Source of the DNA: a virus | Lineage: Duplodnaviria > Caudoviricetes | Strand: one strand, 5' to 3' | DNA: 64,000 bases | IMG/VR virus record: IMGVR_UViG_3300021387_000141 | Span: 26,191 to 90,190 of that record | Shown here: positions 10,740 through 27,657 of the stretch, piece by piece | Layout of the letters: each line of letters starts with the position of its first letter | How positions within the stretch are numbered: position 1 is the first letter of the stretch | Translations under genes and position numbers: made by a program | Notes under the pieces: generated by a model | What the model was told of the DNA's origin: nothing | The model's database searches: none | Seen by the model: only the letters and a program-made list of their open reading frames with translations

Positions 10740-11314
10740 GTTACTTGACAACAATGTGGAAACATTTTAAAACTGTATGCCGGCATAAGATATATGTTTT
10801 TCAGGAATGCCGGGCCTGCGGAATAACCTGGCAGGGGATAACACACGATCTATCCAAGTTCAGCTGGGTCGAGTTCGGTCCGGCCGCAAGATATTTTCAG
10901 GGGAACCGGAGTCCGATCGAGGCGGAAAAAGAAGATCTGGGATATTCCTTTGCCTGGCTGCATCACAAAGGCATCAATCCGCATCACTGGGAATTCTGGA
11001 CTGATTTTGCGGAAGAAGACGGAAGCATCATCACCAACAAGATCCCGTTCAACTATGTTGTTGAGATGGTCTGTGATTGGGTCGGCGCCGGGAAAGCCTA
11101 CCAGAAAGAACAGTGGACCACAGATTCTCCGATGAATTATTTCATAAAGACGCGGAAAGGCCGCCATTTTCATCCGGACACGGAAGACCTGATTGTGCTG
11201 TTTTTGGACGGCATCAAATTTAAAGGTCTGGCTGAATTCCATAAAATGGCTAAATGTGAATCCCCTTATTCGTATTTGCGTGTTGATTACGAAGGGAAGT
11301 ATTATATACCATGA
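10736..11314 (+). CDS. HD-like protein (DUF5662-type by recollection)
   Basis: HDLSKF, WLHHKGINPHHWEFW, EMVCDW motifs. Confidence 0.7.
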   Translation: MSYLTTMWKHFKTVCRHKIYVFQECRACGITWQGITHDLSKFSWVEFGPAARYFQGNRSPIEAEKEDLGYSFAWLHHKGINPHHWEFWTDFAEEDGSIITNKIPFNYVVEMVCDWVGAGKAYQKEQWTTDSPMNYFIKTRKGRHFHPDTEDLIVLFLDGIKFKGLAEFHKMAKCESPYSYLRVDYEGKYYIP

Positions 11315-11529
11315 TATTTCTATATAATAAAGCAGCTAAGAAAAACGGAAAACTCTATTTAGGTACACAAAAGACTTTTTATTATCCAGAAGAATGCTAT
11401 GATGCATTACTGAAAGATATGAAAGATGGTGAAACCGTATACATTATCGAAAAACTACAGGAGTCATCCATTATTCATGATGTATGGGATGAAAAACAAC
11501 AGGCAGAAGTTCGGGGAAAATTTGGATAA
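11311..11529 (+). CDS. Hypothetical protein
   Basis: ATGA overlap with upstream gene. Confidence 0.6.
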   Translation: MIFLYNKAAKKNGKLYLGTQKTFYYPEECYDALLKDMKDGETVYIIEKLQESSIIHDVWDEKQQAEVRGKFG

Positions 11530-11532
11530 GTT

Positions 11533-12096
11533 ATGAAATTAGTTAACTTAATTGAAGAAGATTTTACAAACTTTAAAAAGCCGGGGATGTTCCTCGGCTT
11601 TCCTTATTGTTCCGGTAAATGTAACAGCCCGGGAATGACCGTCTGTCAGAATGAGGAACTCCGCCATGTTCCGGAACGGGATCTGATTGATATTTCAGCA
11701 GAAGAAATCGTCGAACGATATGCTAAAAACCCGATCACAAAGTGTTTGATCATCGGCGGTTTAGAGCCTTTTGACAGTTTTGATGATCTTTGTGAAATTG
11801 TAAAAGCACTGCGACTTGCATGTTGGCGTAATATCGCAGACGAAAAAAATGGCCGCCTTTGGTGGTTGGATCCTATCGTGATCTATACCGGGTATTATCC
11901 ATTTGAAATTAAAGATAAGATCAAAAAACTTTTAGAAAACAACCGATACAGAACGATGATCATTAAGTTCGGAAGATATATTCCCGGACATCAGCCGCAT
12001 TATGATGAAGTTTTGGGAGTAAATCTCGCTTCTGATAATCAGTATGCATTAATGTATGCGGCATTCGACGGTGAGGAATGGGGCACTTTTATATGA
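11533..12096 (+). CDS. nrdG: NrdG-like radical-SAM RNR activase
   Basis: CSGKC...CQN, IGGLEPF, IYTGY, IIKFGRY, LASDNQYA. Confidence 0.8.
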   Translation: MKLVNLIEEDFTNFKKPGMFLGFPYCSGKCNSPGMTVCQNEELRHVPERDLIDISAEEIVERYAKNPITKCLIIGGLEPFDSFDDLCEIVKALRLACWRNIADEKNGRLWWLDPIVIYTGYYPFEIKDKIKKLLENNRYRTMIIKFGRYIPGHQPHYDEVLGVNLASDNQYALMYAAFDGEEWGTFI

Positions 12097-12112
12097 CAGG
12101 GATTGATATTTC

Positions 12113-13291
12113 ATGATTGAACTTTACGACTACCAGGCGGATGCGGTTCGGCGCATGAAAAACGGCTGCATCCTCTGCGGTGGAGTCGGAAGCGGAAAAT
12201 CCAGAACGGCATTGGCCTATTATTTTACACAATACGGCGGAGATCTGAAAAAGCCCAAAAAGCTGAAAGGAGCTCCGCCTCTTTTTATTATCACAACGGC
12301 CCGCAAACGGGACACACAGGAGTGGGAGAAGGAACTGGAACCGTTTAATATTTCGGCGAAGGTGATCGATTCCTGGAATAAGATCAAAGATTACCGTGAG
12401 GTGGAAAATGGGTTCTTTATATTTGATGAGCAGCGTGTCGTGGGATATGGCACCTGGGCAAAAAGTTTCATCCGTATCGCCAGACATAACCGATGGATAC
12501 TTCTTTCGGCCACGCCGGGAGACACCTGGTCTGACTATATACCTGTCTTCATCGCCAACGGATTTTACAAAAACAAATCTGAGTTTGTATCAAGACATGT
12601 TATATGGAGTCACTTCGCCAAGTTTCCAAAGATCGACCATTATGTCGGACAGGCCGTTCTGAACCGTTACCGGAAAGATATTCTGGTGACAATGGACTTT
12701 CATCGGGAAGCGGTGCAGCACCATGAAGATATCTGGTGCGAGTATGACCCACTGATTTATAAAAGTCTGATCAAGACACGCTGGGATCTTTTCAAAGAGA
12801 AACCGATGGAAAACGCCGGAGAGCTTTGTTATTGTCTCAGAAGGGTCGTAAATACGGACGACACCCGTGCACAGGAGATCCAACGCCTGACTAAACAGCA
12901 CCCGAAGGTGATCATTTTCTACAACTTTGACTATGAGCTGGAGCTGCTGAAAGATATTTCGTATACCCAAGGGACTACAGTCGCGGAATGGAACGGGCAT
13001 AAGCATGAGCCGATTCCGGAGACGGACCGCTGGGTCTACCTGGTGCAGTATACCGCCGGATGCGAAGGCTGGAACTGCACGGAAACGGATACGATCATAT
13101 TTTTCAGCCAGAATTATTCTTATAAAGTCATGCTGCAGGCGTCGGGACGCATCGACCGCCTGAACACGCCATTTAAAGATCTTTATTATTATCACCTGAA
13201 GTCGCACAGCAGCATCGACCTGGCGATCCTCAAAGCGCTGAAGCTGAAAAAGAATTTTAACGAAAAAAGTTTCGTCGAAGGATCGCAATAA
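12113..13291 (+). CDS. SF2 (SNF2-like) helicase
   Basis: GVGSGKS, IFDE, LSATP, EGWN, QASGRIDR. Confidence 0.9.
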   Translation: MIELYDYQADAVRRMKNGCILCGGVGSGKSRTALAYYFTQYGGDLKKPKKLKGAPPLFIITTARKRDTQEWEKELEPFNISAKVIDSWNKIKDYREVENGFFIFDEQRVVGYGTWAKSFIRIARHNRWILLSATPGDTWSDYIPVFIANGFYKNKSEFVSRHVIWSHFAKFPKIDHYVGQAVLNRYRKDILVTMDFHREAVQHHEDIWCEYDPLIYKSLIKTRWDLFKEKPMENAGELCYCLRRVVNTDDTRAQEIQRLTKQHPKVIIFYNFDYELELLKDISYTQGTTVAEWNGHKHEPIPETDRWVYLVQYTAGCEGWNCTETDTIIFFSQNYSYKVMLQASGRIDRLNTPFKDLYYYHLKSHSSIDLAILKALKLKKNFNEKSFVEGSQ

Positions 13292-13308
13292 GAACATCTC
13301 CTCATATG
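13283..13308 (+). promoter_or_regulatory. Phage promoter motif copy 1
   Basis: TCGCAATAAGAACATCTCCTCATATG. Confidence 0.7.
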
Positions 13309-13322
13309 AAAGGAGATTAAAA

Positions 13323-13442
13323 ATGAAAAATTTTATAATTGATGCTATCATCGTGATGGCATTTTTATACTTTTTATTGTTGTGCTCCGGTTTATTGCCG
13401 GAGACTTTAAATTGGTTTAATTTAAACCCCAGCCTTTGGTAA
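13323..13442 (+). CDS. 39-aa hydrophobic peptide (not in ORF track)
   Basis: RBS AAAGGAG; MKNFIIDAIIVMAFLYFLLLCSGLLPETLNWFNLNPSLW*; bracketed by promoter and terminator. Confidence 0.7.
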   Translation: MKNFIIDAIIVMAFLYFLLLCSGLLPETLNWFNLNPSLW

Positions 13443-13443
13443 A

Positions 13444-13459
13444 AAGAGCTGGGGCTCTT
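13444..13459 (+). terminator. Hairpin terminator
   Basis: AAGAGC/GCTCTT stem. Confidence 0.55.
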
Positions 13460-13465
13460 AAATTT

Positions 13466-13491
13466 TCGCATAAATAACATATGCTAATATG
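13466..13491 (+). promoter_or_regulatory. Phage promoter motif copy 2
   Basis: TCGCATAAATAACATATGCTAATATG. Confidence 0.7.
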
Positions 13492-13700
13492 GAAAACTAA
13501 TTTGTAGTTTTTTGTAAATATGAGCCGAGTAGCAAGCTGCTGTGAAAGGCTGGAAGTATAGTATGCAGCGGTTTATTTTGTAAATTCCGGTACAAAATAA
13601 ATGCGAATTATCCCGGAATAGTACTGTAATTTATGTGGTTTTAGCAGTACTGGATATATAAACCACAAATGAATAAGAGCCCTTCATGGGCTCTTAAAAT
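13492..13700 (+). ncRNA. Candidate tandem-pseudoknot ncRNA
   Basis: No RBS or usable ORF; promoter upstream, terminator downstream; two clear H-type pseudoknot pairings (see findings). Confidence 0.65.
13675..13695 (+). terminator. Hairpin terminator
   Basis: AAGAGCCC/GGGCTCTT stem. Confidence 0.65.
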
Positions 13701-13701
13701 T

Positions 13702-13727
13702 TCGCAGGATTTGCATCTCCTAAAATG
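13702..13727 (+). promoter_or_regulatory. Phage promoter motif copy 3
   Basis: TCGCAGGATTTGCATCTCCTAAAATG followed by GAGGAC/GTCCTC hairpin. Confidence 0.75.
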
Positions 13728-13767
13728 GAGGACAAAAGTCCTCTAAAAATTTTTTAGGAGAAAAAAA

Positions 13768-14214
13768 ATGGAAAAAATTCAAAATATTGTTGTTTTGATC
13801 GCTGCGGTGATCATTGTGCTGTTTGCGATCTATAAGGTCGCGGAAAACATTGCAGGTTTTATTGCCCGCAAAATTGTAGAAAAGCGTTCACAAAATGAAC
13901 GCATTAACAAAAAGCTTGATTGTCAATGGACGACGATCAAAGAAATAAAAAAAGAAATCCTTGCTCTCCAACAGGAGAATAAGAAACATTGGTCTGTAGT
14001 TAACGGTGTGAATGCCACCGTTCTGCGAACAGAAAAAGCTTTGAAAGAAGCTTATGATCCCGATAATTTTTATACTTATCGGATGAATAAAACAGAATTT
14101 GGAACCTTTCTCGCGAAATGCGAGGAATGGCTCAACCGTCTTGAAAAAGACGGAACAATTGATTTGGAAGATATTAAAGAAAATCTTTCAAAGGAAGAAA
14201 AACCCGCTGAATAA
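13768..14214 (+). CDS. Membrane-anchored coiled-coil protein
   Basis: RBS AGGAG; N-terminal hydrophobic helix. Confidence 0.8.
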   Translation: MEKIQNIVVLIAAVIIVLFAIYKVAENIAGFIARKIVEKRSQNERINKKLDCQWTTIKEIKKEILALQQENKKHWSVVNGVNATVLRTEKALKEAYDPDNFYTYRMNKTEFGTFLAKCEEWLNRLEKDGTIDLEDIKENLSKEEKPAE

Positions 14215-14224
14215 GCAGGTAAAA

Positions 14225-14244
14225 AAGAGTCCGCAAGGACTCTT
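14225..14244 (+). terminator. Repeated terminator AGAGTCCGCAAGG(A/G)CTCT
   Basis: Near-identical copies at 14529-14548 and 19174-19191. Confidence 0.7.
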
Positions 14245-14250
14245 AAATTT

Positions 14251-14276
14251 TCGCGTAAATTACAGCTCCTGTAATG
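14251..14276 (+). promoter_or_regulatory. Phage promoter motif copy 4
   Basis: TCGCGTAAATTACAGCTCCTGTAATG. Confidence 0.8.
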
Positions 14277-14319
14277 AGAGGACATGGATGATCCTCTTAT
14301 TAATTTATAGGAGTAAATT

Positions 14320-14520
14320 ATGAGAAATATTTTAGGTATAATCGCAGGCGCGATTGGATTATTAATAGCTATTTATAATATAAAAAGTTATTATAATGAA
14401 ATTAAAAAGATTCAGGAAACTGATAAATCAATAAAAGATATGGATTTGCAATTAGAAATGTTGCTTAAATCATGTACATTATATGATTATAAAAAAGATA
14501 CGGCAGTATCTGATAAATAA
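14320..14520 (+). CDS. Small membrane protein
   Basis: RBS AGGAG; N-terminal hydrophobic helix. Confidence 0.75.
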   Translation: MRNILGIIAGAIGLLIAIYNIKSYYNEIKKIQETDKSIKDMDLQLEMLLKSCTLYDYKKDTAVSDK

Positions 14521-14553
14521 TTAATAAAAAGAGTCCGCAAGGGCTCTTATTTT

Positions 14554-14579
14554 TCGCATAAATTACAACTCCTATAATG
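14554..14579 (+). promoter_or_regulatory. Phage promoter motif copy 5
   Basis: TCGCATAAATTACAACTCCTATAATG. Confidence 0.8.
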
Positions 14580-14626
14580 AGAGGACACGGATGATCCTCT
14601 TATTATTTTTAAAAAAGGAGATAATT

Positions 14627-15166
14627 GTGGGAATTTGGACTCACACTAATAATATTGTTAAAGTCGATTGCAAAAATAAAATCGATGATTTTTCCGAATA
14701 CTTTGGAAAAGAAATTGTATATATGGTACATTCAGAGAATTACAGGAATAAAAAAACATGGAAAATTGATTGGGATCGATATGATCTCGCTAAGAAAAAA
14801 GAATTTGAAAGCCATAAAAAACTATGGGATGAATATAAAGTGCATCCCGAATTGTTTCTGCCTATGGGCAGTGAAGGAAGTCTGCATTTAAAAAGCAGGC
14901 TGCTAACAAGAGTGAAAAATTCTTTATACCCTTACCGGTATAAAGTTGAAATTTATGGTGATCTTCGCGATCACTATGATGTAGAGGAAGTTATTGACTG
15001 CATCCGAAATGGAGTCAATAAATTAAAAGCGCGGCATGACTGTTGTATATCAACAGAGGCCAACGTTCGTAATTATTTGGACGGAATGGCATCGTATAAA
15101 TTTGAAGATGCTTATTTTCGTAATAAAGATTTCTATAAAATCAGGGAGCCTTATAAAGGATCCTGA
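14627..15166 (+). CDS. Hypothetical phage protein
   Basis: RBS AAAGGAG with GTG; WTH, PMGSEGSL and IYGDLRD segments. Confidence 0.75.
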   Translation: MGIWTHTNNIVKVDCKNKIDDFSEYFGKEIVYMVHSENYRNKKTWKIDWDRYDLAKKKEFESHKKLWDEYKVHPELFLPMGSEGSLHLKSRLLTRVKNSLYPYRYKVEIYGDLRDHYDVEEVIDCIRNGVNKLKARHDCCISTEANVRNYLDGMASYKFEDAYFRNKDFYKIREPYKGS

Positions 15167-15212
15167 TTATGAAAGCCCTAACAAGGGCTATTTATTTTTT
15201 TCTGAGGAGCCA

Positions 15213-15416
15213 ATGAAGAGAGTTTATTTGGTATTGTACAGTCCGTTTTGGAATGGAATGATTGCACCGGAATGTATTGAAAAAGCATTCGCATCTAAAC
15301 ATATGGCAGAAGAATATATTCATGATCAGTGTATTAAATGTGGCTGCGACAGATCCTCTTATGAAATTTACAGTATTAATGTAGAAAATTCATCGCGATA
15401 TGAACAAAGCCTTTAA
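15213..15416 (+). CDS. Hypothetical protein
   Basis: RBS GAGGAG; start moved from 15036. Confidence 0.7.
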   Translation: MKRVYLVLYSPFWNGMIAPECIEKAFASKHMAEEYIHDQCIKCGCDRSSYEIYSINVENSSRYEQSL

Positions 15417-15418
15417 TA
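15393..15418 (+). promoter_or_regulatory. Phage promoter motif copy 6
   Basis: TCGCGATATGAACAAAGCCTTTAATA, inside the end of the upstream gene. Confidence 0.7.
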
Positions 15419-15552
15419 GAGAAAGAGAAAGGTCGTAAGGACGCATCAAAGGACTGAACACCCATTGATGAACGGATCACTGTCAAAGTTCAGGGCAGTA
15501 TTCGTACAAGAGGGAATTACGGCCCCTTGAGTATCAGGTACTTTTATTTTTT
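15418..15552 (+). ncRNA. Candidate kissing-loop ncRNA
   Basis: ORF-less stretch between promoter copies 6 and 7; three hairpins with complementary loops. Confidence 0.5.
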
Positions 15553-15555
15553 CAA

Positions 15556-15581
15556 TCGCGATTTAAACAGCTCCTTTAATG
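15556..15581 (+). promoter_or_regulatory. Phage promoter motif copy 7
   Basis: TCGCGATTTAAACAGCTCCTTTAATG plus AGAGAGAC/GTCTCTCT hairpin. Confidence 0.8.
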
Positions 15582-15625
15582 AAGAGAGACAAGCAGTCTC
15601 TCTAATTTTTTAAAGGAGATAAAAA

Positions 15626-15862
15626 ATGAAAAAGATTAATTTAATTTATGGATGCATTCTGCATCCAGAAAAAAATGTCGTAAAAATTATTGCCGGCAAA
15701 ATTCTGTCGGCTTTGATTGGATACAAAATTTGGGGCGTTTTTGCCTCAAACAAACGGTGCTATGCATTTGGCACCAAAAAACAGGCGATTAATTTCGCCA
15801 AAGCAATCTGGGATTGTAATGGACACAATCCTGTAATAGTAGTGGAACAACACTACTATTAA
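15626..15862 (+). CDS. Hypothetical protein
   Basis: RBS AAAGGAG. Confidence 0.75.
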   Translation: MKKINLIYGCILHPEKNVVKIIAGKILSALIGYKIWGVFASNKRCYAFGTKKQAINFAKAIWDCNGHNPVIVVEQHYY

Positions 15863-15876
15863 ATAAAAATTTAAAA

Positions 15877-15897
15877 AGGAGTCTTACAAAGACTCCT
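15877..15897 (+). terminator. Repeated terminator AGGAGTCTTACAAAGACTCCT
   Basis: Identical copy at 16172-16192. Confidence 0.65.
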
Positions 15898-15912
15898 GAA
15901 TTTCGTGTAGAT

Positions 15913-15938
15913 TCGCAAAATTTACAGCTCCTTTAATG
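15913..15938 (+). promoter_or_regulatory. Phage promoter motif copy 8
   Basis: TCGCAAAATTTACAGCTCCTTTAATG; downstream leader near-identical to copy 7. Confidence 0.8.
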
Positions 15939-15980
15939 AAGAGAGACAAGCAGTCTCTCTAAATTTTTAAGGAGATAAAA

Positions 15981-16166
15981 ATGGAAGTTTTAAAAACAGA
16001 ACAGCTCCCTGATGGGAGCAAAAAGTATTATTTTGTGGATGGTACATCGACCATCCTGTCTAAGGAATTTCTCGCACGTTGCGAGAAAATTAGTCGGAAA
16101 AACCCGTCCGTTGGACGGAAGAACGCGAATTGCCCCAGAATGAGGGCAATAGTTGTAAATAAATAA
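15981..16166 (+). CDS. Hypothetical protein
   Basis: RBS AAGGAG. Confidence 0.7.
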   Translation: MEVLKTEQLPDGSKKYYFVDGTSTILSKEFLARCEKISRKNPSVGRKNANCPRMRAIVVNK

Positions 16167-16200
16167 AAATAAGGAGTCTTACAAAGACTCCTAAAATTTT

Positions 16201-16209
16201 TGTTATACT
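16201..16209 (+). promoter_or_regulatory. Extended -10 host-type promoter element
   Basis: TGTTATACT (TGn-TATACT) upstream of an RBS. Confidence 0.45.
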
Positions 16210-16241
16210 TGTTTCATAGAAAAGGAGCAAAAGATGTAGAA

Positions 16242-16523
16242 ATGATTAATAAATGGCTATGTTGTTTACTTGTTTTAATTGCATTTGGGTTAGGAGCATT
16301 GCTTGTTGCAATATATCATAAAAAAGCATATGAAAAAGGCGTTCAGGATGGAAAGAATCTTGTCATGAATGAATGGGTTCAATATATGACCCCGGAAGAA
16401 GTGATAGATATTTGCCATGAATTTTTGGAAGATGATGATCATTGTCCTTTACTATTAATTCGACCGGATAAATACGATTATATTGATGGTCATGGTGAAG
16501 GCATACAAAAGATATTTCAATAA
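16242..16523 (+). CDS. Membrane-anchored hypothetical protein
   Basis: N-terminal hydrophobic helix; start uncertain. Confidence 0.65.
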   Translation: MINKWLCCLLVLIAFGLGALLVAIYHKKAYEKGVQDGKNLVMNEWVQYMTPEEVIDICHEFLEDDDHCPLLLIRPDKYDYIDGHGEGIQKIFQ

Positions 16524-16593
16524 ACCTCATACTCACTGATCTTTAGAACAGCTCGCATTACGCGGGCTTTTTTATTTAATCGAAAGGAAACAA

Positions 16594-17448
16594 ATGACTA
16601 GTTTTATCTCTATGCTGGGCGGCGCGGATGCCAAATCGATCGAAGCCAAATTCAATGATATTTCTGAGAATCTGAACGTGCTTTCTTCCAGAATTGCTGA
16701 GCTGGATGCAGTTGTGACTAAGCTGGACAAATACACGATGAATCTGGAAGCCGGTATTCGCAATAACGAGATCTGCTGCACTGAACTGAAGCAAAAATAC
16801 AGCAGCGAAGGCCTGACCAAGCGGGTTGATGACGTCGATCGCATGGTCCGGTATTTCCAATCCTCTCACGGCAAGGTACTGAATGATATTCGGGACCTGA
16901 AAAAGGAACTCCATGGTTTGTACGGACGCCAGTGCCCGCCCCCACAGGAAGAACTGGATAAATCCATCGCGAAGGACAACAGCGAGATCCTGCTGAGTGA
17001 TATTATTACGAACCTGATTCCGGAATACCATGAACGCGGATGTGTATTAAAAGCCATGAAACGAAATGGTTGGAAGACCGTTTCCGATCTGCTGGCGGTT
17101 CCTTATTCTCAGCTTCCGGACAGGCCATGGCTCGGTAAGAAAGTCCTTGCAGTTTTTCAGTGCATTTACGAACAATACGGGAAGATCGACCCGAAGGCCG
17201 TATCGGATGATATTCCGGACACGGATCTGAAAAAGGCAATCTTTGACATGGAAGGCAGCACCAAGACCAAATCCAGGGTCTATAACATGCTGAAAAAAGA
17301 GGGCATTTTTACGCTTGAACAGCTGGCGCAGAAATCCTTGCTGCAGTTATGCACGGATCATCCCGATTTTCGTAAAGGCCGTGCAGGCGATCTTTTGTCG
17401 GCTGTTTATACCAAATACATCTGGACCGAAGGAGAAAAGGATGCGTAA
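16594..17448 (+). CDS. Coiled-coil protein with two RNAP alpha-CTD-like domains
   Basis: RGCVLKAMKRNGWKTVSDLLAVPYSQL...LGKKVL and SRVYNMLKKEGIFTLEQLAQKS. Confidence 0.6.
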   Translation: MTSFISMLGGADAKSIEAKFNDISENLNVLSSRIAELDAVVTKLDKYTMNLEAGIRNNEICCTELKQKYSSEGLTKRVDDVDRMVRYFQSSHGKVLNDIRDLKKELHGLYGRQCPPPQEELDKSIAKDNSEILLSDIITNLIPEYHERGCVLKAMKRNGWKTVSDLLAVPYSQLPDRPWLGKKVLAVFQCIYEQYGKIDPKAVSDDIPDTDLKKAIFDMEGSTKTKSRVYNMLKKEGIFTLEQLAQKSLLQLCTDHPDFRKGRAGDLLSAVYTKYIWTEGEKDA

Positions 17449-17689
17449 TTTTTTCAAAGGCTTTTGGGAATATCTCAAAAACTGGGCATGGTCTTTGTTT
17501 GCCATGGCTTTATGGATGTTCGTCGGGATCGTGATCAGCTTGTTTTGTGTCTGGTACGGAATTATCGGCACCGGACCGGTGTTTATGATTGACCCCAAAT
17601 TCATTGATTTTCTCCGGGAAGCTGCCGACAAAAGTGAGGAGCTCCGAAAGAAACGTTTAGAAGAGGAAATTGAAAATGAAGAAAATTAA
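17441..17689 (+). CDS. Membrane protein
   Basis: RBS GGAG; long hydrophobic segment; start moved to 17441. Confidence 0.7.
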   Translation: MRNFFKGFWEYLKNWAWSLFAMALWMFVGIVISLFCVWYGIIGTGPVFMIDPKFIDFLREAADKSEELRKKRLEEEIENEEN

Positions 17690-17900
17690 AAGCTATTTAA
17701 GAAACTGGATGGATTTTCTGACTATGAGCTTTCTATTGTTTGTCCTAAGTTTCATGGACTTCATCACTGGATTTTTTGCTGCACTTACCAACAATCAGGG
17801 CTGGTGGTATCGTATAGTTCATATTTATAAAAATATGGGTGATCGTATGTATGCGGTTATGGAAAAGGAGAAGGAAGATGGAAACGATGAAACCATTTGA
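17676..17900 (+). CDS. Membrane protein
   Basis: RBS GAGG; hydrophobic segment. Confidence 0.7.
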   Translation: MKKIKSYLRNWMDFLTMSFLLFVLSFMDFITGFFAALTNNQGWWYRIVHIYKNMGDRMYAVMEKEKEDGNDETI

Positions 17901-18285
17901 TTTTTGGGTCGAATACGGTCCTGAAGGCAAACTTCAGACAATCAGCTTTATGGATATTTCATTGACCGATGCTTTATCGGCGCTCCTTTTTTTGAAAAAC
18001 ACGGAACCCTGTGATTCAGAACCCAACCCGGAAGCCCGTCCGAAATCGATTTTTGAAAACCCGATGGTGGCGGTTAAAGACTACATCGGAAAGTATCCCG
18101 TTTGCTATTTTACGCCGCAGGGTCAGTATTTTGAAGTCAAGACTTATTTACCGAAAGATAAAGGCTGGATCTGCCATTTGATGACCTATACCGGAAACGA
18201 TAACGACGGTTATCGCTGGTACCATGCCGATGACAGCATTTATATTTACGATGCTTATCTCACATTGGTTCGTAAGGAGGGGTAA
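17878..18285 (+). CDS. Hypothetical protein
   Basis: RBS AAGGAG; coupled. Confidence 0.7.
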   Translation: METMKPFDFWVEYGPEGKLQTISFMDISLTDALSALLFLKNTEPCDSEPNPEARPKSIFENPMVAVKDYIGKYPVCYFTPQGQYFEVKTYLPKDKGWICHLMTYTGNDNDGYRWYHADDSIYIYDAYLTLVRKEG

Positions 18286-18569
18286 TGGAACCTACAATGA
18301 TTGCTGTATCCGGCGAGGAATCCCGGATCATTTCGATCGAAGATCAATATTATGTGATCACCGATTACAAAACTGCCGCGGACATGGAAGAAGAAAACTG
18401 GCACGCATTCAAAGTCGTGCGCTTTAATAATTCCTGGTGGCAGCCGCAGCTGAACGAGCGGTATTTGATCAACCGGGAAACGCTGGAGATCACGGACGAT
18501 CCCCGGGAATATTATGAAGAGCCGGTTATTCCGGATGAACCTGTTGAAGAAGAGGAGCCCAATGAATAG
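18285..18569 (+). CDS. Acidic hypothetical protein
   Basis: RBS AAGGAGG; TAATG overlap. Confidence 0.75.
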   Translation: MEPTMIAVSGEESRIISIEDQYYVITDYKTAADMEEENWHAFKVVRFNNSWWQPQLNERYLINRETLEITDDPREYYEEPVIPDEPVEEEEPNE

Positions 18570-18873
18570 TTATCTGATCGCAGCCTGTGTTCCGTTAGCT
18601 GTTTTGGTATTAGAACTGTTAAGTGAACAATACAACCTTCGGAAAAAGAATCGTGAAATATCGGAAGATATTTTTAATATCAGTTCTGAAATGACAGATT
18701 TGAGAATGTTTTATGACCGGCAGCAGAAAGAGCTGACGAAATTGCGCGCAGAGCTGGAAAAAGTCAGCAATGAACTCGTTGGGACGAAAGAGATGATCAC
18801 CCAGATGCAGGAGAACTACGGCCGGTTTTTCGGCGACGCGCAGATCGAAGGACAGTATAAACTTCACTTTTAA
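18562..18873 (+). CDS. Membrane-anchored coiled-coil protein
   Basis: RBS GAGGAG; hydrophobic N-terminus then heptad pattern. Confidence 0.7.
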   Translation: MNSYLIAACVPLAVLVLELLSEQYNLRKKNREISEDIFNISSEMTDLRMFYDRQQKELTKLRAELEKVSNELVGTKEMITQMQENYGRFFGDAQIEGQYKLHF

Positions 18874-18874
18874 T

Positions 18875-18900
18875 TCGCAGGATTTACAAAGCCTATATTG
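18875..18900 (+). promoter_or_regulatory. Phage promoter motif copy 9
   Basis: TCGCAGGATTTACAAAGCCTATATTG plus GAGCAGA/TCTGCTC hairpin. Confidence 0.75.
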
Positions 18901-18946
18901 AGCAGACATGGATGATCTGCTCTTTATTTTTAAATAGGAGAAAAAA

Positions 18947-19165
18947 GTGGAAACTATTGTTGTAGTTTGTGCTGTTGTCGCTACTGCGACATTTGTTGTT
19001 AAAACAATCGTTTCCTGGATTAAATCCGGGAAATACGAAAAGGAAGCGGCTTTGCGCCGCAAAGAAAATGAAACGCGAAGGGCGACCTTCGCAGAAGCCA
19101 GGCTGAACCGCCTGGAAGAAAAACTGAAAGAAAAAGAAAATGTCAATGAGGACATTGATTGGTAA
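18947..19165 (+). CDS. Small membrane-anchored protein
   Basis: RBS AGGAG with GTG; hydrophobic N-terminus. Confidence 0.75.
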   Translation: METIVVVCAVVATATFVVKTIVSWIKSGKYEKEAALRRKENETRRATFAEARLNRLEEKLKEKENVNEDIDW

Positions 19166-19247
19166 ATGAAAAGAGAGTCCGCAAGGGCTCTTATTTTTTT
19201 CAATCGCTGGCTGACCACAAGTCACCAGCCACTAAAGGAGAAATCTT

Positions 19248-19409
19248 ATGTCTAAAACTTTGAAAACTGTATTGTTCGGCATTTTTGGCCTGGTCGTTGT
19301 CGGTGTGTTGGGTTATGGGATCTACAGCTACGCCACCCATACCGGATATTTTGCTCCGGCAGAAACGGAAGTAACGGAAACGGTCGAAGAAGTAGAAATC
19401 AGCGAATAA
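19248..19409 (+). CDS. 53-aa membrane peptide (not in ORF track)
   Basis: RBS AAAGGAG; MSKTLKTVLFGIFGLVVVGVLGYGIYSYATHTGYFAPAETEVTETVEEVEISE*. Confidence 0.75.
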   Translation: MSKTLKTVLFGIFGLVVVGVLGYGIYSYATHTGYFAPAETEVTETVEEVEISE

Positions 19410-19412
19410 AGA

Positions 19413-19438
19413 TCGCGATATGCGCATGGCCTCTAATG
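19413..19438 (+). promoter_or_regulatory. Phage promoter motif copy 10
   Basis: TCGCGATATGCGCATGGCCTCTAATG plus GAGGAGAG/CTCTCCTC hairpin. Confidence 0.7.
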
Positions 19439-19480
19439 AGGAGAGATAAACTATATTACAACTCTCCTCTGGAGGAAAAA

Positions 19481-19876
19481 ATGACATCAATGTATAAAGT
19501 AGTTGTATCCACTATTGGATACAATCCAAATAATGAATGCCCAGAAAATCTCTGGGTAAATGTGAGCGATCCTAAACGGATCGTATCAAATAAAGCGCTT
19601 GGGCGTTTAAATGCCCAAGTGATAAAATTGAACAATGAAGTCGAAAGACTTCAATCTACTAATGGGTATTATGTACCCAGAAGAGACTACTTTTTCTACG
19701 TCGAAAAAGACGTAGAACATATAGGTAGGATTCAAATCCGCTATGAAGATAATGGCGGATACACTTACGAACCAGAGTACGAGTTGGTTATTACTGCCAA
19801 CTCGGCTAGACAGGCCCGAAGATGGGCCTTGAAGTGGACATTATTTAAAGTCCATAAATGGGAGATAGAGGATTAA
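19481..19876 (+). CDS. Hypothetical protein
   Basis: RBS GGAGG; start moved to 19481. Confidence 0.75.
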   Translation: MTSMYKVVVSTIGYNPNNECPENLWVNVSDPKRIVSNKALGRLNAQVIKLNNEVERLQSTNGYYVPRRDYFFYVEKDVEHIGRIQIRYEDNGGYTYEPEYELVITANSARQARRWALKWTLFKVHKWEIED

Positions 19877-20050
19877 TTTCCTCACTCCCTATTTTTTTTT
19901 CAACTTCACCTCTCATTAAAAGCACATACAGCAAGTCGTTATTTTGGAAGAGATGGCCGGGGAACTCCCGGCGATGCTTTGTCCGGAGAGGTGAGCATTG
20001 AGGAGCATGAAACATTGCTCCTCTTTTTTTTCTTAGTGAAAGGAAACAAA

Positions 20051-20530
20051 GTGGAATATTCTAAAAAAGAGATCACAGCAAAAGATAAGATCAAAAAATT
20101 AATGGACTATGTACAAGCTGCGCAGGAGTTTACAAACCAATTGATCAATTATTTAAAGGGGATCGACTGCATGACTCACAACAGCGAAGGCGTTTACGCG
20201 GATGAGATTGAAGAAAGCGAACTGCACGGTTTTGACTGGGATGACGGTCACGCTTATTTAGCTACGGATTTTACCATTGATGAACTTCCGGAAGCTTTAG
20301 CCTCTATCAGCAATGACATGGATGAAAAAATACGGGATCTTGAAGAAAAAGATCGAATGAATGACGCATATCGAAAGATCTATACTTATTTTAAAAATGA
20401 TCCGTCCTTATGTTTCAGTTCTGTTTCAGAAACAAAACTGAAGGAATTTTATCATGTCTGCCTGAACATTGCCGAAATGTCGGAAAGCAAATTCATTGAA
20501 AATGTTTTTGAAGCGCAGAAAGGAAAATAA
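20051..20530 (+). CDS. Hypothetical protein
   Basis: RBS AAAGGA with GTG; start moved from 19979. Confidence 0.7.
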   Translation: MEYSKKEITAKDKIKKLMDYVQAAQEFTNQLINYLKGIDCMTHNSEGVYADEIEESELHGFDWDDGHAYLATDFTIDELPEALASISNDMDEKIRDLEEKDRMNDAYRKIYTYFKNDPSLCFSSVSETKLKEFYHVCLNIAEMSESKFIENVFEAQKGK

Positions 20531-20532
20531 GT

Positions 20533-20964
20533 ATGTCCATGTTTTTTGTAGTGCAGTGCAACGGCAAATTCGATAAAAAAGATCACCTCTGGGATGACGG
20601 CATTACTTTATTCCAGGAACCTGATCATATGACCAAAAGAGAGGTCCTTGAATTCATTGATATTCTCAAAGCAGACATGCCGAACCTGGATAAGTCAACC
20701 TGCCCGGACGTGCAGGAGCTGCAGTGCCGGGAACCGGACACCGGGATGCGTCTGGTGATTTTACTGGTGAAAGCCAAGGGCTATCAGCAGGCGGCGGAAA
20801 AAGCGCGGAAATTCTGTGATATTTGGTATAAGCCGAAAAAGACCCCGCGTAAAAAGCAGTTCACGGCCAAAGAACTGCTCAATGCTATTCCGAAAGGGAT
20901 CCGGCAGGCTTCGCAAGGGCAATATGATTTTCCCTATTATTCCAAACGCCTGAACTGGAGATGA
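20533..20964 (+). CDS. Hypothetical protein
   Basis: Operonic, RBS AAAGGA. Confidence 0.75.
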   Translation: MSMFFVVQCNGKFDKKDHLWDDGITLFQEPDHMTKREVLEFIDILKADMPNLDKSTCPDVQELQCREPDTGMRLVILLVKAKGYQQAAEKARKFCDIWYKPKKTPRKKQFTAKELLNAIPKGIRQASQGQYDFPYYSKRLNWR

Positions 20965-20965
20965 A

Positions 20966-21433
20966 ATGAACCTTGATAAACTGAATGAATTATTTCCGAT
21001 AAACGATGAGACGGTCAATATTGACTGGACTCACAAATCAACTTCGACCGCTCCCGAGGGTTATTCCAAAACAAATGGTAATGTCTATTCTCCGTCTGAT
21101 AAATGGACAGCTGAACCGATTTCGGAAAAAAACTTTGAAATCTGTCATCCGGTCCAGGTTATGTCCGGAGAACAAAATACTGAAGTATTGAATAATCCGC
21201 TGACCTGGGAAGAGATCCAGAATTATGTCGGCTGTCCGGTTTGGACGGTGCCGGATAACAGTAAAGAATTACCGGCATGGAGTTTACTTGTCAGAACGCA
21301 GAACATTTTTGATGCCGGCAGCTGGGATACAAAGAAAACGGTCGTGATCACTTCGATAATTTCGTTCGATCGGGTCGTTGATTTTTGCAAGTATCGGTTT
21401 TACAAAGAACCACAGCCGGTCGATAAAAGGTGA
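20966..21433 (+). CDS. Hypothetical protein with internal PLTWEEIQ..CPVW motif
   Basis: RBS GGAG; motif shared with 9201-9449. Confidence 0.7.
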   Translation: MNLDKLNELFPINDETVNIDWTHKSTSTAPEGYSKTNGNVYSPSDKWTAEPISEKNFEICHPVQVMSGEQNTEVLNNPLTWEEIQNYVGCPVWTVPDNSKELPAWSLLVRTQNIFDAGSWDTKKTVVITSIISFDRVVDFCKYRFYKEPQPVDKR

Positions 21434-22002
21434 TCAACATGAATGAAGAGATAAATTGGAATGTTCCGTACGCGTCATTTTTTAATGCCGGTGAATGGAA
21501 CGCGACGATCGAAATAGACGAACTCAATGAAAATGCAATAAAGGATATTTTTGATATGAACAATAATGATGTGAAATCTTACACTTTTAAATTGGTTTAC
21601 CCATGGTGTAAACAGGATGAAGAAAAAACGACTGAACCCCTTGGGAAAGTCAAACTTGAAAATGCGAATCAGGCGATGCTCCGATTTTTACAGAGCAACG
21701 GCTTTGTGATCTACAAAGATATTTACGACGCTTTCGGCATGAAGTACAAAAAAGCAGACCCGGAAGTCTTTCGTTTTTACTGCGGGGATTACAAAGCTTA
21801 CCAGCTTTATCTTCGGAAACTGATCGCCGTCGGGAAAGAACGTGTGACCGGCGCGGAAGCGAATGCTGACGGCCTGCACCGGGACGCTGAACGTTATCTT
21901 AACCTTGAGCAGCGCGAACGGGAAAAAGCGAAACGATGGAACGAAGACGCGAACCGGCTGCAGGATTTTCTGGATTTTACTTATGAAAAGGAAGAGGATT
22001 AA
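21430..22002 (+). CDS. Hypothetical protein, YCGD paralog 1
   Basis: FRFYCGDYKAYQLYL. Confidence 0.7.
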   Translation: MINMNEEINWNVPYASFFNAGEWNATIEIDELNENAIKDIFDMNNNDVKSYTFKLVYPWCKQDEEKTTEPLGKVKLENANQAMLRFLQSNGFVIYKDIYDAFGMKYKKADPEVFRFYCGDYKAYQLYLRKLIAVGKERVTGAEANADGLHRDAERYLNLEQREREKAKRWNEDANRLQDFLDFTYEKEED

Positions 22003-22373
22003 TGATAGAAAAAGATATTTACATCAAGCTGACGCTTCAGATCGAAGATGAATCAAAAGATGAGCAAAATCTGCGCGAAGCATTTTCCGAACTGATCAAA
22101 CGCCGGAAGCGCTGCGGATTTTTGATCGCCCATGACCTGGATGCTCTGTTGGATCTGGAATCGGAGAATCCTTATATTCTCTACTGCGGTGATAAGAAGC
22201 TTTACCGCGAATGGATCGATTTACAAATTAAACTTTGTTCAATACGAAAATCATATTTTAGGGATTATTATAAACAATACCCATGGCTTTTGGAAAACAC
22301 GATAAAAGAAATTTCCGATGAAGAAACACAGATGAGAATGGCTTTAAAAGAACTGGATAAGGACGAAGAATGA
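22002..22373 (+). CDS. Hypothetical protein, YCGD paralog 2
   Basis: ENPYILYCGDKKLYREW. Confidence 0.75.
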   Translation: MIEKDIYIKLTLQIEDESKDEQNLREAFSELIKRRKRCGFLIAHDLDALLDLESENPYILYCGDKKLYREWIDLQIKLCSIRKSYFRDYYKQYPWLLENTIKEISDEETQMRMALKELDKDEE

Positions 22374-22765
22374 TCGAAAAAACTTTTACCTTTGATAACA
22401 ATACCATGCCGATGGTAAACATCAAGATCGATTTTGACATTGTGGGCTATGATCCTGCCGATGACAAACTTTGTGAAGGTTTTTCAAAATTGATGCAGCT
22501 CCGCAATAACAGAAAGTTTTTGATCATGAAGGATCTGAAAGACTGTCTTAATCTGAAATCTATTGAAAATCCTTATATTTTCTACTGCGGTGATAAAAAA
22601 ATTTATCGCCAATGGGCCGATAATGAACTGCAGATGCTTTTAGTTGAACTTAGAATGAATGGTGTTAATCATTGGAATTCCTGTTTTAAAGATTATGAAA
22701 TGAGAAAAAAACTCGATCTTATTCGATCAGCTATAATAGCTGATGAATTGGACAAGGAGAACTGA
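22370..22765 (+). CDS. Hypothetical protein, YCGD paralog 3
   Basis: ENPYIFYCGDKKIYRQW. Confidence 0.75.
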   Translation: MIEKTFTFDNNTMPMVNIKIDFDIVGYDPADDKLCEGFSKLMQLRNNRKFLIMKDLKDCLNLKSIENPYIFYCGDKKIYRQWADNELQMLLVELRMNGVNHWNSCFKDYEMRKKLDLIRSAIIADELDKEN

Positions 22766-23304
22766 TGAAAAAAGCATATATTGTTCTGCTGTTTATCATT
22801 TTTGTGATGCTCCTGACCGGATGTGATAGCTTTTACACGCCCAGTGAAAAGGAAGTCAAAAGTCAGATGAATATTGCGGACCGCATGGTCGAAGCTCAGC
22901 CAATCCCTCAGGATATCGAATACTCGCTGGAACGCTATAACCTGATCCGGCGGGCTTATTGGGTGAACGGACAGCGGGAGAAGGCTAACTCCTTCCCCTG
23001 TATCGTTTCCAAACCGCTGGGTTATATTCTGCTCTTCACCGAATCCGGTTCCATCGTCGGGAATTTCATCGTTGACGGAAAAGTATCTTCCCTGAATGCA
23101 TATTTAACACCGGACAGTGAATACTATTCCACCACCAGCAGTTTTAATGCCTGGCTGGCAGATGTGGATGGAAGCTACGGCCAAAACGACTCCGGCATTT
23201 TCTTCTTCACGCCGGACGGTAAATACATCGAATGGACCGGGATCTATTTATATTCCGATATCCCGTTCGAAGTCGAAACGACTTTGTTGACCATAGGAAA
23301 GTGA
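22765..23304 (+). CDS. Lipoprotein
   Basis: Signal MKKAYIVLLFIIFVMLLTG-C with lipobox LTGC. Confidence 0.8.
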   Translation: MKKAYIVLLFIIFVMLLTGCDSFYTPSEKEVKSQMNIADRMVEAQPIPQDIEYSLERYNLIRRAYWVNGQREKANSFPCIVSKPLGYILLFTESGSIVGNFIVDGKVSSLNAYLTPDSEYYSTTSSFNAWLADVDGSYGQNDSGIFFFTPDGKYIEWTGIYLYSDIPFEVETTLLTIGK

Positions 23305-23305
23305 T

Positions 23306-23698
23306 ATGAATAAATTCTTGTATACTTTACTGCTCGTTATTCTGGTGCTTGCCCTCGCGGCAGGCTTTTATTTTACCTGTTTCCCTCAGGGACGTGCTAT
23401 GTGGAACACCTACCAAAACTCTCTTCATAAAATCGACGACCGGACCACGTATGAACAGCGCAAGCTGGTCGAAGACACCTGCCGTTCGATGATCGCATCC
23501 TGGAATGCGGATATTCTGATCTATAAACAATATCGTAAGTCCGACTCGCCCGAAAAGCAGAGTTGGGCGGAAGAAGCCCTGATGCGTGCCAACAAAACGG
23601 CCGTGACTTACAACGAGTATATTCTCAAGAACAGCTATGTCTTCCAGGGCAACATCCCTTCTGATATTTATGCTGTCATCACTCCGATCACGGATTAA
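23306..23698 (+). CDS. Membrane-anchored protein paired with the lipoprotein
   Basis: N-terminal hydrophobic helix; starts right after the lipoprotein stop. Confidence 0.75.
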   Translation: MNKFLYTLLLVILVLALAAGFYFTCFPQGRAMWNTYQNSLHKIDDRTTYEQRKLVEDTCRSMIASWNADILIYKQYRKSDSPEKQSWAEEALMRANKTAVTYNEYILKNSYVFQGNIPSDIYAVITPITD

Positions 23699-23707
23699 GG
23701 AGAAACA

Positions 23708-24082
23708 ATGAAAGCGACTGACTTGCAAGGTATTGAACTGTCTTATAACGAAAACGGTGAGATCGAATTTCTGGTGTCCTATGGTTACGGCGCCGGTTGG
23801 CTGACCTGGAACGGTTATGATTACCGCCTGATATTTGACAAGCGTATCATCGATTATCTGCGTGAGCATCAGGGCAATATTAATCGAATAAATGATGATG
23901 AAGTCAAAGCATTTTTCAAGCAGCTCGGCTACTATGACGATGACCACTATTTATATTTCGGCGGCTTTTGGAAATGTCAAATCGAATCTCTTCCGAAAGG
24001 AACCATATTTCGGCTTGACGAGTATGATGGATCGGAAAGCGTTGAAATTTATGATCCCGATTATTCTTTTATGGAAGTTTAA
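23708..24082 (+). CDS. Hypothetical phage protein (VSYGYGAGW motif)
   Basis: RBS AAGGAG. Confidence 0.75.
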   Translation: MKATDLQGIELSYNENGEIEFLVSYGYGAGWLTWNGYDYRLIFDKRIIDYLREHQGNINRINDDEVKAFFKQLGYYDDDHYLYFGGFWKCQIESLPKGTIFRLDEYDGSESVEIYDPDYSFMEV

Positions 24083-24100
24083 TATGAATAAGGAAGGTAC

Positions 24101-24580
24101 ATGGAATACACACTGCAGAATTGTATTTTAAACGCAAGCAGACTGAAACGCCGTGAACATGTTCTCAGCGTCCTGACGGACAATGATATTCTGAACTTCA
24201 CCGACCTTGTGAACCGGCCGCTCCCGACCAAAGGCCTCTGGAAATCGGAGTTCGCATATTTGCGGGATCTTCGGCAGAAAGAAGCCGCGCTTCAATCCAT
24301 GTTCCACCACAGCGAGATCGAATTGAAACGGACGCTGGATGGATATTTTACCAAACATGAGGCCAGCCGGGTATTCCACGTTTTGACGGCAAATAAAATC
24401 TCGTCGGTACGCTTACTGGCCAGTGCCAGCATCAGCAGACTCCGGGATATTTACGGCATCGGCCCCAAGTCGATTGATATTTTGATGAAACTCAAAACCG
24501 ATCTCTGGAATCGGGCGGAAGAAGACGCAAAGTATAAAGCGCAGTACACGCAAACTGCCGTGTCTTTGACCGCCTTCTGA
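24101..24580 (+). CDS. Protein with alpha-CTD/HhH-like domains
   Basis: ASRVFHVLTANKISSVRLLASASISRLRDIYGIGPKSIDIL. Confidence 0.6.
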   Translation: MEYTLQNCILNASRLKRREHVLSVLTDNDILNFTDLVNRPLPTKGLWKSEFAYLRDLRQKEAALQSMFHHSEIELKRTLDGYFTKHEASRVFHVLTANKISSVRLLASASISRLRDIYGIGPKSIDILMKLKTDLWNRAEEDAKYKAQYTQTAVSLTAF

Positions 24581-24662
24581 GCTTCATACTCACTGATATT
24601 TCAAACCAAGGCCCGTGAGATTTGCACGGGCTTTTATTTTTTAAAGGAGAACAACAAATACT

Positions 24663-24845
24663 ATGCCGGGAGATCCCTATCGCAAAGAACAACTGGTATT
24701 AAAAATTTACAAGTATCTGGATGAAGGATATTTGGTCAGCGAGATCGCTGAAATTCTGGACATGCCGGAAGAAAAGATCTGGCAGATCATTGAGTCCGTT
24801 GAAAAGGAAGACGAACCGAAAGGTTATGAATATTATCGAAGGTAA
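24663..24845 (+). CDS. Small HTH DNA-binding protein
   Basis: LDEGYLVSEIAEILDMPEEKIWQII (sigma region 4-like). Confidence 0.7.
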   Translation: MPGDPYRKEQLVLKIYKYLDEGYLVSEIAEILDMPEEKIWQIIESVEKEDEPKGYEYYRR

Positions 24846-24848
24846 GCC

Positions 24849-25118
24849 ATGAACACATGCTACTGGAACTGCCTCAGCTGGAACAAGCTCACTTCTCCTG
24901 AAATGATCGACAAAGATATTCTGATCATTTACCGCGGACCGGACTTTGATGATATTCATCTGGCCCCGCAGAAAGTCGTTCAGATCATCGGGACCGATCA
25001 TGTGGAGAACGAGCGGGTCCTCATTGTTTATGATCACGATGAGGATGATATTTTTCTGATCACCCGGGAGGGCAAAGGCCGTCTCTGGGAGACCTATCAG
25101 ATCATGGAAGGGTTTTGA
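24849..25118 (+). CDS. Hypothetical protein
   Basis: Operonic. Confidence 0.7.
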   Translation: MNTCYWNCLSWNKLTSPEMIDKDILIIYRGPDFDDIHLAPQKVVQIIGTDHVENERVLIVYDHDEDDIFLITREGKGRLWETYQIMEGF

Positions 25119-25121
25119 TTT

Positions 25122-25322
25122 ATGACACAGCCGATCAGTAATGTTATTTCCGGTGTGAAATGCTGCATCAGTGATTGCGGGACCGCTTCCCACTGCAAGA
25201 GTTGTCCGTACGACTCTTTAGATCCCGAAAAGGAATCCTGCGAGGATGCGCTGGCCCGTGACATTTTAGTATATTTAACAAACTATGAAGAACTTTTAGA
25301 AAAAGTTCCTTGTACGGAGTAA
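25122..25322 (+). CDS. Cys-rich protein, paralog A
   Basis: CCISDC..CKSCPY..C..LARDIL. Confidence 0.7.
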   Translation: MTQPISNVISGVKCCISDCGTASHCKSCPYDSLDPEKESCEDALARDILVYLTNYEELLEKVPCTE

Positions 25323-25324
25323 GA

Positions 25325-25606
25325 ATGGCAATCAGAAAAGATCTTGATCAAGTGATCGAAGGATTTTTACAATGTGAATATCGAGACTGCACCTGTACCG
25401 CCTGTCCTTATAACGAATCAGACGATTGTACGGCCGAACTGCGGGATGATATTTGGTATTACCTGCATCAGTTATATTTGCAGGAACAACCGACGACGAT
25501 CGAACAGCCGCCGCTTCCGGGTCTGGAAGCAGAACCCGAGACGTTTGAAGACAAGCTGGAACGGATCGCGGATATTTTGAAAGAGAAACAACATGAACGA
25601 AGATGA
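25325..25606 (+). CDS. Cys-rich protein, paralog B
   Basis: CEYRDCTCTACPY..C..LRDDIW; RBS GGAG. Confidence 0.7.
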   Translation: MAIRKDLDQVIEGFLQCEYRDCTCTACPYNESDDCTAELRDDIWYYLHQLYLQEQPTTIEQPPLPGLEAEPETFEDKLERIADILKEKQHERR

Positions 25607-25772
25607 TGAACTGGATCCGCTGGTCCGACAATATTTTGATGCACTTCGGAAGATTGGTGCGCTGTTCATAGAAGCCGCCGATAATTTTCAGAATGACTGT
25701 CCTGAACCTGACGATGTTGTCGAAGTTTATGAAGTGAAACGGGAGCTTCCGGAGGGTAAAAAAGAATCGTAA
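25593..25772 (+). CDS. 59-aa acidic protein (not in ORF track)
   Basis: MNEDDELDPLVRQYFDALRKIG...ELPEGKKES*. Confidence 0.55.
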   Translation: MNEDDELDPLVRQYFDALRKIGALFIEAADNFQNDCPEPDDVVEVYEVKRELPEGKKES

Positions 25773-25779
25773 GGACGCG

Positions 25780-26070: not shown

Positions 26071-26106
26071 TTTTACTGATAAAAGGCCCCTCCTTCTGAT
26101 TTTTCA

Positions 26107-26115
26107 TGCTATACT
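26107..26115 (+). promoter_or_regulatory. Extended -10 host-type promoter element
   Basis: TGCTATACT upstream of RBS AGGAGG. Confidence 0.5.
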
Positions 26116-26142
26116 TTGAAAACAGAAAGGAGGTCGAATTCA

Positions 26143-27656: not shown

Positions 27657-27657
27657 T

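Follow-up and report, generated by a model that had tools for sequence, protein, structure and literature searches.

A strain-variable, ORF-less expression cassette in a Clostridia phage: a candidate small RNA gene with two predicted back-to-back pseudoknots

The window (the whole stretch of DNA analysed here, 64,000 nt) is taken from a complete virus record (90,190 bp, direct terminal repeats), of which it covers bases 26191-90190. The + strand carries all genes of this 90-kb phage, among them those for a primase/helicase-polymerase protein, NrdD, a helicase (12113-13291), terminase, portal, Dit, and a head protease-capsid fusion; a YonO-type single-subunit RNA polymerase is encoded at window positions 27646-30465. 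One ORF of 5224 residues (window 46008-61682) lies upstream of the Dit gene and, if it encodes the tape-measure protein, would imply an exceptionally long tail. Helicase relatives with 55-73% identity occur in genomes and MAGs of Roseburia, Lachnospiraceae, Oscillospiraceae, Butyrivibrio, and Faecalibacterium (Clostridia), and the phage DNA occurs in animal gut metagenome runs. The phage is siphovirus-like and probably infects gut Clostridia.

An array of small, early-type expression cassettes lies directly downstream of the replication gene block, and the unit described here, which runs from promoter to terminator with no gene in between, sits within it. It is flanked by genes for small membrane proteins (39 aa upstream, 66 aa further downstream) and is followed by the gene for a 148-aa protein, which has its own copy of the promoter motif at 13702. 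The 148-aa protein has an N-terminal hydrophobic helix, no Pfam family, no PADLOC match, and a weak spanin-like PHROG match only (E 0.0075). Strong AGGAG ribosome-binding sites precede the neighbouring genes. The cassettes are mosaic between strains (window 13323-13442 and 14320-14520): the 39-aa membrane-protein gene is swapped for an unrelated sequence of similar length in contig L082 and in run X4, identity in the region of this gene being 59.6% vs. 98.6% in the adjacent helicase, and one contig carrying P0003 is without the 66-aa cassette.

The cassettes share a 30-nt motif with the consensus TCGCrAAATTTACAnCTCCTnTAATGAGAG. Its exact skeleton is found 20 times in the 90-kb genome (11 copies in the window), always on the + strand, with 0 copies on the other strand; the copies span window 13283-26558 and, upstream of the window, genome bases 10973-19625, and the late structural region holds none. 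Each copy starts a cassette or an ORF-less unit; many have a terminator hairpin before them and a 5' hairpin, an AGGAG site, and a small ORF after them, and more distant relatives also carry the motif. The spacing does not fit sigma-70, and the motif may represent the promoter class of a phage-encoded or phage-modified polymerase. The promoter of YonO was left undefined in the YonO paper (PMC5467207), which thus offers none for comparison with the motif; we infer promoter status from position.

A promoter at 13466 and a terminator of its own had been assigned to the unit in an earlier, sequence-only reading, and both assignments hold at the level of sequence and position. The putative promoter is one of the 20 same-strand copies of the motif, a poor match to sigma-70, and the terminator is of the same hairpin family as those closing the neighbouring cassettes (terminators 13427-13455 and 14225-14245), a family that recurs at 13452, 13688, and 14237, with a similar copy at ~14529-14549; its U-tract on the + strand is weak. 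The features of the unit are collected in Table 1.

Table 1 Features of the ORF-less unit and its flanks. Positions are those of the window; S, stem; L, loop.
Feature	Position	Strand	Details
Left 19-nt direct repeat copy, GGGCTCTTAAATTTTCGCA	13452..13470	+	Upstream terminator 3' arm and start of promoter motif
Putative phage-specific promoter motif TCGCR-N7-CA-N4-CT-N4-T, slightly divergent copy	13466..13495	+	20 exact genome copies
236-nt block	13471..13706	+	Present or absent between otherwise collinear strains (strain comparison)
Candidate 5'-terminal hairpin AAAACTA/TAGTTTT	13494..13512	+	Same position as 5' hairpins of neighbouring cassettes
Weakly structured 5' domain	13513..13571	+	Includes 13-codon mini-frame and unsupported "third pseudoknot"
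Predicted pseudoknot A, 48 nt	13572..13619	+	S1 11 bp, S2 7 bp; L1/L2/L3 1/0/11 nt (L1 13583; L3 13602-13612)
S1A	13572-13582 with 13591-13601	+	11 bp, exact
S2A, ATTCCGG with CCGGAAT	13584-13590 with 13613-13619	+	7 bp, exact
Predicted pseudoknot B, 48 nt	13620..13667	+	S1 7 bp, S2 8 bp; L1/L2/L3 7/3/8 nt
S1B, AGTACTG (first strand)	13620-13626 with 13645-13651	+	7 bp; pairing given by palindromic core of two AGTACTG copies
S2B, TGTGGTTT with AAACCACA	13634-13641 with 13660-13667	+	8 bp, exact
Terminator hairpin, recurrent AAGAGnCC...GGnCTCTT family	13674..13696	+	9 bp (5 G-C); pair probability about 1.0
Right 19-nt direct repeat copy, one mismatch	13688..13706	+	Start of promoter of next cassette

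Other promoter-like signals were noted. Further motif copies lie at window 26533-26830 and, likewise, at genome bases 11297-11750 and 13827; none has both a ribosome-binding site and an ORF of 25 or more codons within 235 nt, and they may be further non-coding units or long leaders. TGTAAAT/TGTAATT, which is the promoter core AWTTACA in reverse complement, occurs 29 times on the + strand of the genome; three of these copies fall in the unit (13513, 13579, 13625; 0.06 expected; post-hoc P about 3e-5), and the L082 haplotype alters one of the three. On the minus strand, a sigma-70-like promoter (TTTACA-18-TATACT, 13584 to 13555) for an RNA antisense to the 39-aa gene was weak, and it was rejected because such matches are rarer than in shuffled sequence (4 found, 5.9 expected).

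The unit was described beforehand as having no ribosome-binding site and no usable ORF, and its coding capacity is indeed minimal. A Shine-Dalgarno sequence was not found in the unit, each of its forward frames holds 3-5 stops, and the longest + strand ATG frame, of 13 codons (13520-13561), is without a ribosome-binding site. A micro-peptide cassette built on this 13-residue frame is very doubtful. All three variant sites within it do preserve the frame (13543, synonymous Cys; 13557, Val to Ala in the last residue; 13561, TAG to TAA), but three such sites carry little weight (about 1 in 10 by chance, by our own estimate), the phage's other cassette genes all have AGGAG, and the 100-nt helix-rich part would be left unexplained.

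The unit might also be a relic, that is, a cassette that has lost its ribosome-binding site and ORF and kept its promoter and terminator, its RNA being functionless and its repeats partly due to chance. At 13514-13524, GTAAAT-ATGAG resembles the region in which the 66-aa gene cassette starts (14314-14325), a likeness that could reflect descent from a coding cassette. Against this stand the stops in every forward frame and a three-frame translated search for a decayed gene, which gave nothing at E below 0.2 among the phage proteins and 88 related loci. The strain comparison, the helices, and the divergence of the unit, all given below, bear on the relic as well.

The unit is present in contigs of the same phage species, at 100% identity in L088, L191, and L194 and at 97.8% in L082, and also in Logan contigs of three further runs (X4-X6). 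In two contigs from other samples (L089, L195), exactly 13471-13706 is missing, and the deletion junction falls within the 19-nt direct repeat GGGCTCTTAAAWTTTCGCA that flanks the unit; the left copy of the repeat is the left recombination boundary of the cassette. Both contigs have another small membrane-protein gene in place of the 39-aa gene, and the terminator of that gene is followed at once by the 148/155-aa gene's promoter. In a third contig, whose helicase is 99% identical, the two flanking genes are just 84 nt apart. Run X4 retains the unit where the upstream 39-aa gene is replaced. The unit thus behaves as an independent, dispensable module, exchanged via the repeated terminator-promoter joints like the surrounding protein cassettes. 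The proposal of a stand-alone RNA unit is thus well supported by context, namely the cassette frame and the 236-nt block that is gained or lost whole. Dispensability, together with a very narrow distribution, would also suit a relic.

All pairings proposed earlier are present at the positions given for them, those of pseudoknots A and B exactly as in Table 1. The four perfect helices share no nucleotides and tile 13572-13667 as two abutting 48-nt H-type topologies; in both, the hairpin loop pairs downstream and the loops are long enough for the grooves, so that all loops are sterically acceptable. Between 13497 and 13673, four perfect inverted repeats of at least 7 nt occur within 60 nt, where 0.52 would be expected (dinucleotide shuffles, P 0.001), and two H-type interleavings in the 177-nt cargo have a P of 0.002 against dinucleotide shuffles. 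Interleavings of this type number 13 in the 64-kb window and 84 in 784 kb of related phage DNA; two that abut are found, in the 784 kb, in this unit and its same-species copy in L082 only. Because so rare a tandem lies inside one of the genome's few ORF-less units, chance is an unattractive explanation. Nor would decay of a coding cassette be expected to leave four helices in two abutting H-type arrangements (P about 0.002; unique in 784 kb), which tells against the relic. The tandem of H-type pseudoknots put forward in the sequence-only reading therefore stands as statistically and thermodynamically plausible, except for its weaker third member at 13523-13569 (4 bp and 5 bp), which is indistinguishable from chance, its GCTGC/GCAGC helix having an ensemble probability of 0.01.

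For the whole transcript, the nested folding ensemble gives S1A a probability of 0.72, S1B one of 0.96, and the terminator one of about 1.0; apart from the 3' strand of S2B, the strands of the S2 helices are mostly unpaired, and the 5' hairpin is not favoured. With the S1 helices masked, the best second-layer fold consists of exactly S2A and S2B. Each of the four helices, taken singly as a hairpin, has an energy between -6.3 and -7.8 kcal/mol. For the core, the best nested fold reaches -21 kcal/mol, and a rough estimate for the double pseudoknot, made with a standard pseudoknot penalty, is of the same order; with nested fold and double pseudoknot so similar in stability, thermodynamics permits the pseudoknots and does not prove them. 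Since no nucleotide is claimed by two helices, pseudoknots account for the pairings more naturally than a two-state switch would. For the exact double-pseudoknot fold, as modelled, the odds are put somewhat short of even.

Three haplotypes of the cargo differ at eight substitution sites (13543, 13557, 13561, 13571, 13592, 13611, 13627, 13670), of which 13543 and 13571 both come from a single contig of depth 3.7. One of the eight, 13592, falls in the 66 stem positions, and none in S2; the avoidance of stems is not significant (P 0.13). The change at 13592 (A>G) turns U-A into U.G, a valid pair in the + strand RNA only, and G>A at 13571 would convert G.U to A-U and extend S1A. Compensatory double changes are absent (0) among the three haplotypes, which are 97-100% identical. 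Between the window and L082, 5 of 177 cargo positions differ (2.8%), compared with 20 of 315 synonymous sites of the helicase and 148-aa genes (6.3%; Poisson P 0.03, Fisher P 0.06); the two promoter/terminator modules differ at 0 of 145 positions (P 0.0004). The deficit against synonymous divergence is marginal and could be caused by recombination history, so these figures give at most a hint of constraint on the cargo. For the relic they cut both ways: the divergence of the unit is similar to that of whole neighbouring genes, but that of the cargo lies below the synonymous rate. With the evidence from coding capacity and helices, we consider a relic unlikely.

The inverted repeats might alternatively act in the DNA, as protein-binding sites, as a transcription-activated replication origin, or as a recombination site. 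The location directly downstream of the replication gene block, the density of inverted repeats, and the three TGTAAAT/TGTAATT copies would suit such an element. In a cruciform or on the other strand, however, the A>G change at 13592 sets C against A as a mismatch, and promoter and terminator frame the unit exactly as in an expression cassette; an essential origin is unlikely because the block is absent from near-identical strains. A DNA-level role is accordingly given very little credence, and a small RNA gene is the preferred reading.

Relatives of this candidate RNA gene are confined to the strain level: its known homologs are 97-100% identical. The Infernal/Rfam search that had been called for returned no family: Rfam 15 at the gathering score had no match in the whole window, and at E up to 10 the region 13400-13800 gave weak unrelated matches only. 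The best sub-threshold match, to freshwater-2 (26.6 bits; gathering score 49.9; window 13677-13770), lies outside the unit on the terminator-hairpin-RBS leader of the 148-aa gene and is probably due to no more than a common architecture. No tRNA or tmRNA was detected with ARAGORN. The unit was not matched in INPHARED phages (blastn), in 80 IMG/VR loci around helicase relatives of 60-64% amino acid identity (blastn and nhmmer), or in 80 genome_contigs loci; of seven closer contigs, only L082 and L088, which belong to the same species, carried it. Scans of viral_contigs with exact and with gapped patterns gave 0 matches, and a 20-mer scan of metagenome_contigs gave one chance match within an unrelated coding region. 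A covariance model of S1A and S1B (R1), run against 168 loci, found the window and L082 only, all other matches having E above 0.7. BLAST of the unit against 802 sampled Clostridia genomes (sets of 5, 401, and 401) gave single short chance matches (at most 40 bits) and no arrays; a 54-nt match at 79% identity was inspected and discarded as chance.

A second ORF-less, promoter-driven unit lies at window 15393-15556, with a homolog in another contig (L083:4778-4941) that occupies the slot right after a small membrane-protein gene, where the first unit sits here. Like the first, it has the same promoter motif, no ORF, and a helix-rich cargo; unlike in sequence, the two have no similarity to each other. 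Its distribution is narrow, with no further IMG/VR copies, and only one compensatory pair was found between its two copies.

Flanking genes for small membrane proteins and the weakly structured 5' domain (13513-13571) suggest a base-pairing sRNA, either a type I antitoxin-like regulator of the 39-aa/66-aa hydrophobic proteins or a regulator of host messages, in which the pseudoknots would form a stabilising 3' domain. A stretch of 9 nt (13545-13553) is complementary to the 3' end of the 39-aa gene, but there is no extended complementarity to a toxin message as in type I antitoxin-like antisense RNAs. The longest antisense match in the whole 90-kb phage is 13 nt, within the null range; with 128 translation-start regions, the best duplexes are no better than those of shuffled controls; and the unit is still there in run X4, where another sequence has taken the place of the 39-aa gene. 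With no significant complementarity to messages of the phage itself, the RNA is less likely to act by base pairing, and we regard such a role as improbable.

Type III antitoxins consist of tandem direct repeats of a single 34-49-nt unit, and the ToxN/CptN/TenpN-type endoribonuclease gene next downstream is co-transcribed with them through a leaky terminator; the two pseudoknot units, at 48 nt each, are within this size range. The sequence-only reading had pointed to these antitoxins and to an anti-defence decoy, and the unit would on this account mimic a type III antitoxin (pseudo-ToxI/CptI/TenpI) or copy another host RNA. Type III antitoxin families and phage pseudo-ToxI have been described (PMC3401426, PMC5086642); ToxI, CptI, and TenpI are likewise promoter-driven, protein-less RNAs of pseudoknotted units of about 35-50 nt, followed by a terminator and a gene, and pseudo-ToxI is a phage precedent for RNA counter-defence. 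The layout of promoter, pseudoknot RNA, terminator, and gene resembles toxIN-type loci, and the cassette lies in an accessory region. The two 48-nt units, however, are unrelated in sequence; only direct repeats of 7-10 nt are present, and Tandem Repeats Finder (minimum score 30) found none in 13466-13706. Pfam, PHROG, and PADLOC gave no match between the 148-aa neighbour and ToxN-type nucleases, and no endoribonuclease or other toxin or defence gene was recognised beside the unit. The gene of the 148-aa protein is read from a promoter copy of its own and is found in L089 and L195, which lack the unit. Nothing similar was found in Rfam or in the 802 sampled Clostridia genomes. The proposed ToxI-like array or decoy finds no support here, and a mimic of this kind is judged highly improbable.

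Other known RNAs resemble the unit in part. RNA anti-CRISPRs (Racrs, solitary repeat units; PMC10651486) are likewise small stand-alone non-coding RNA genes in phage accessory regions, and the unit, like them, would act through binding by a host protein. Racrs are recognisable by their similarity to CRISPR repeats, however, whereas the unit has no repeat-like, multi-copy match in the 802 sampled Clostridia genomes, is about 200 nt long, and has four helices instead of one repeat hairpin. A stretch of the unit, GTTTTAGCAGTACTG, is one that we take to resemble type II CRISPR repeats; a CRISPR-repeat reading of it was dropped, no array-like match being found in the sampled Clostridia genomes. Classical H-type pseudoknots with a long stem 1 include the frameshift signal of coronavirus IBV. 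Pseudoknot A is like these in its 11-bp S1, 7-bp S2, and L1/L2/L3 of 1/0/11 nt, with coaxial stacking possible; the fold type alone is alike, since the unit has no ORF, slippery site, or translation context. The put RNA of HK022 is a cis-acting RNA of processive antitermination and, like the unit, a structured RNA directly behind a phage promoter in a terminator-rich region, but it has no sequence or model similarity to the unit; unlike in put-type antitermination, read-through is not needed here because every downstream cassette has its own promoter.

We read the unit as, most likely, an accessory gene for a small non-coding RNA of about 205 nt that is transcribed on its own (roughly 13495 to 13700, + strand), and we give this reading a probability slightly better than even (roughly 0.55); the 3' half of the small RNA is probably two back-to-back pseudoknots. 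The phage promoter motif would drive the predicted RNA early in infection, both pseudoknots would form at once to give a compact 3' domain ahead of the terminator, and the RNA would then act in trans, bound by a host or phage protein. The strain-variable presence of the unit among hypervariable small genes fits a dispensable host-interaction role. It is a long shot that the unit encodes a phage RNA factor of a new kind, serving counter-defence or host takeover: an early double-pseudoknot RNA that sequesters a host RNA-binding defence or regulatory protein and is traded between strains as a self-contained promoter-RNA-terminator module, like protein anti-defence genes.

Searches of phage accessory regions are aimed at protein anti-defence genes, and cassettes without a protein are mostly ignored. 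Here, the plug-in expression frame used by the neighbouring small genes holds an RNA-only cargo, which is swapped between strains as a unit. Its present value is that of a well-delimited candidate, a block of 236 nt that some natural strains have and others lack, and not of an established system. If functional, it would offer a compact natural double pseudoknot for study, and the accessory gene pool of Clostridia phages would gain a structured RNA.
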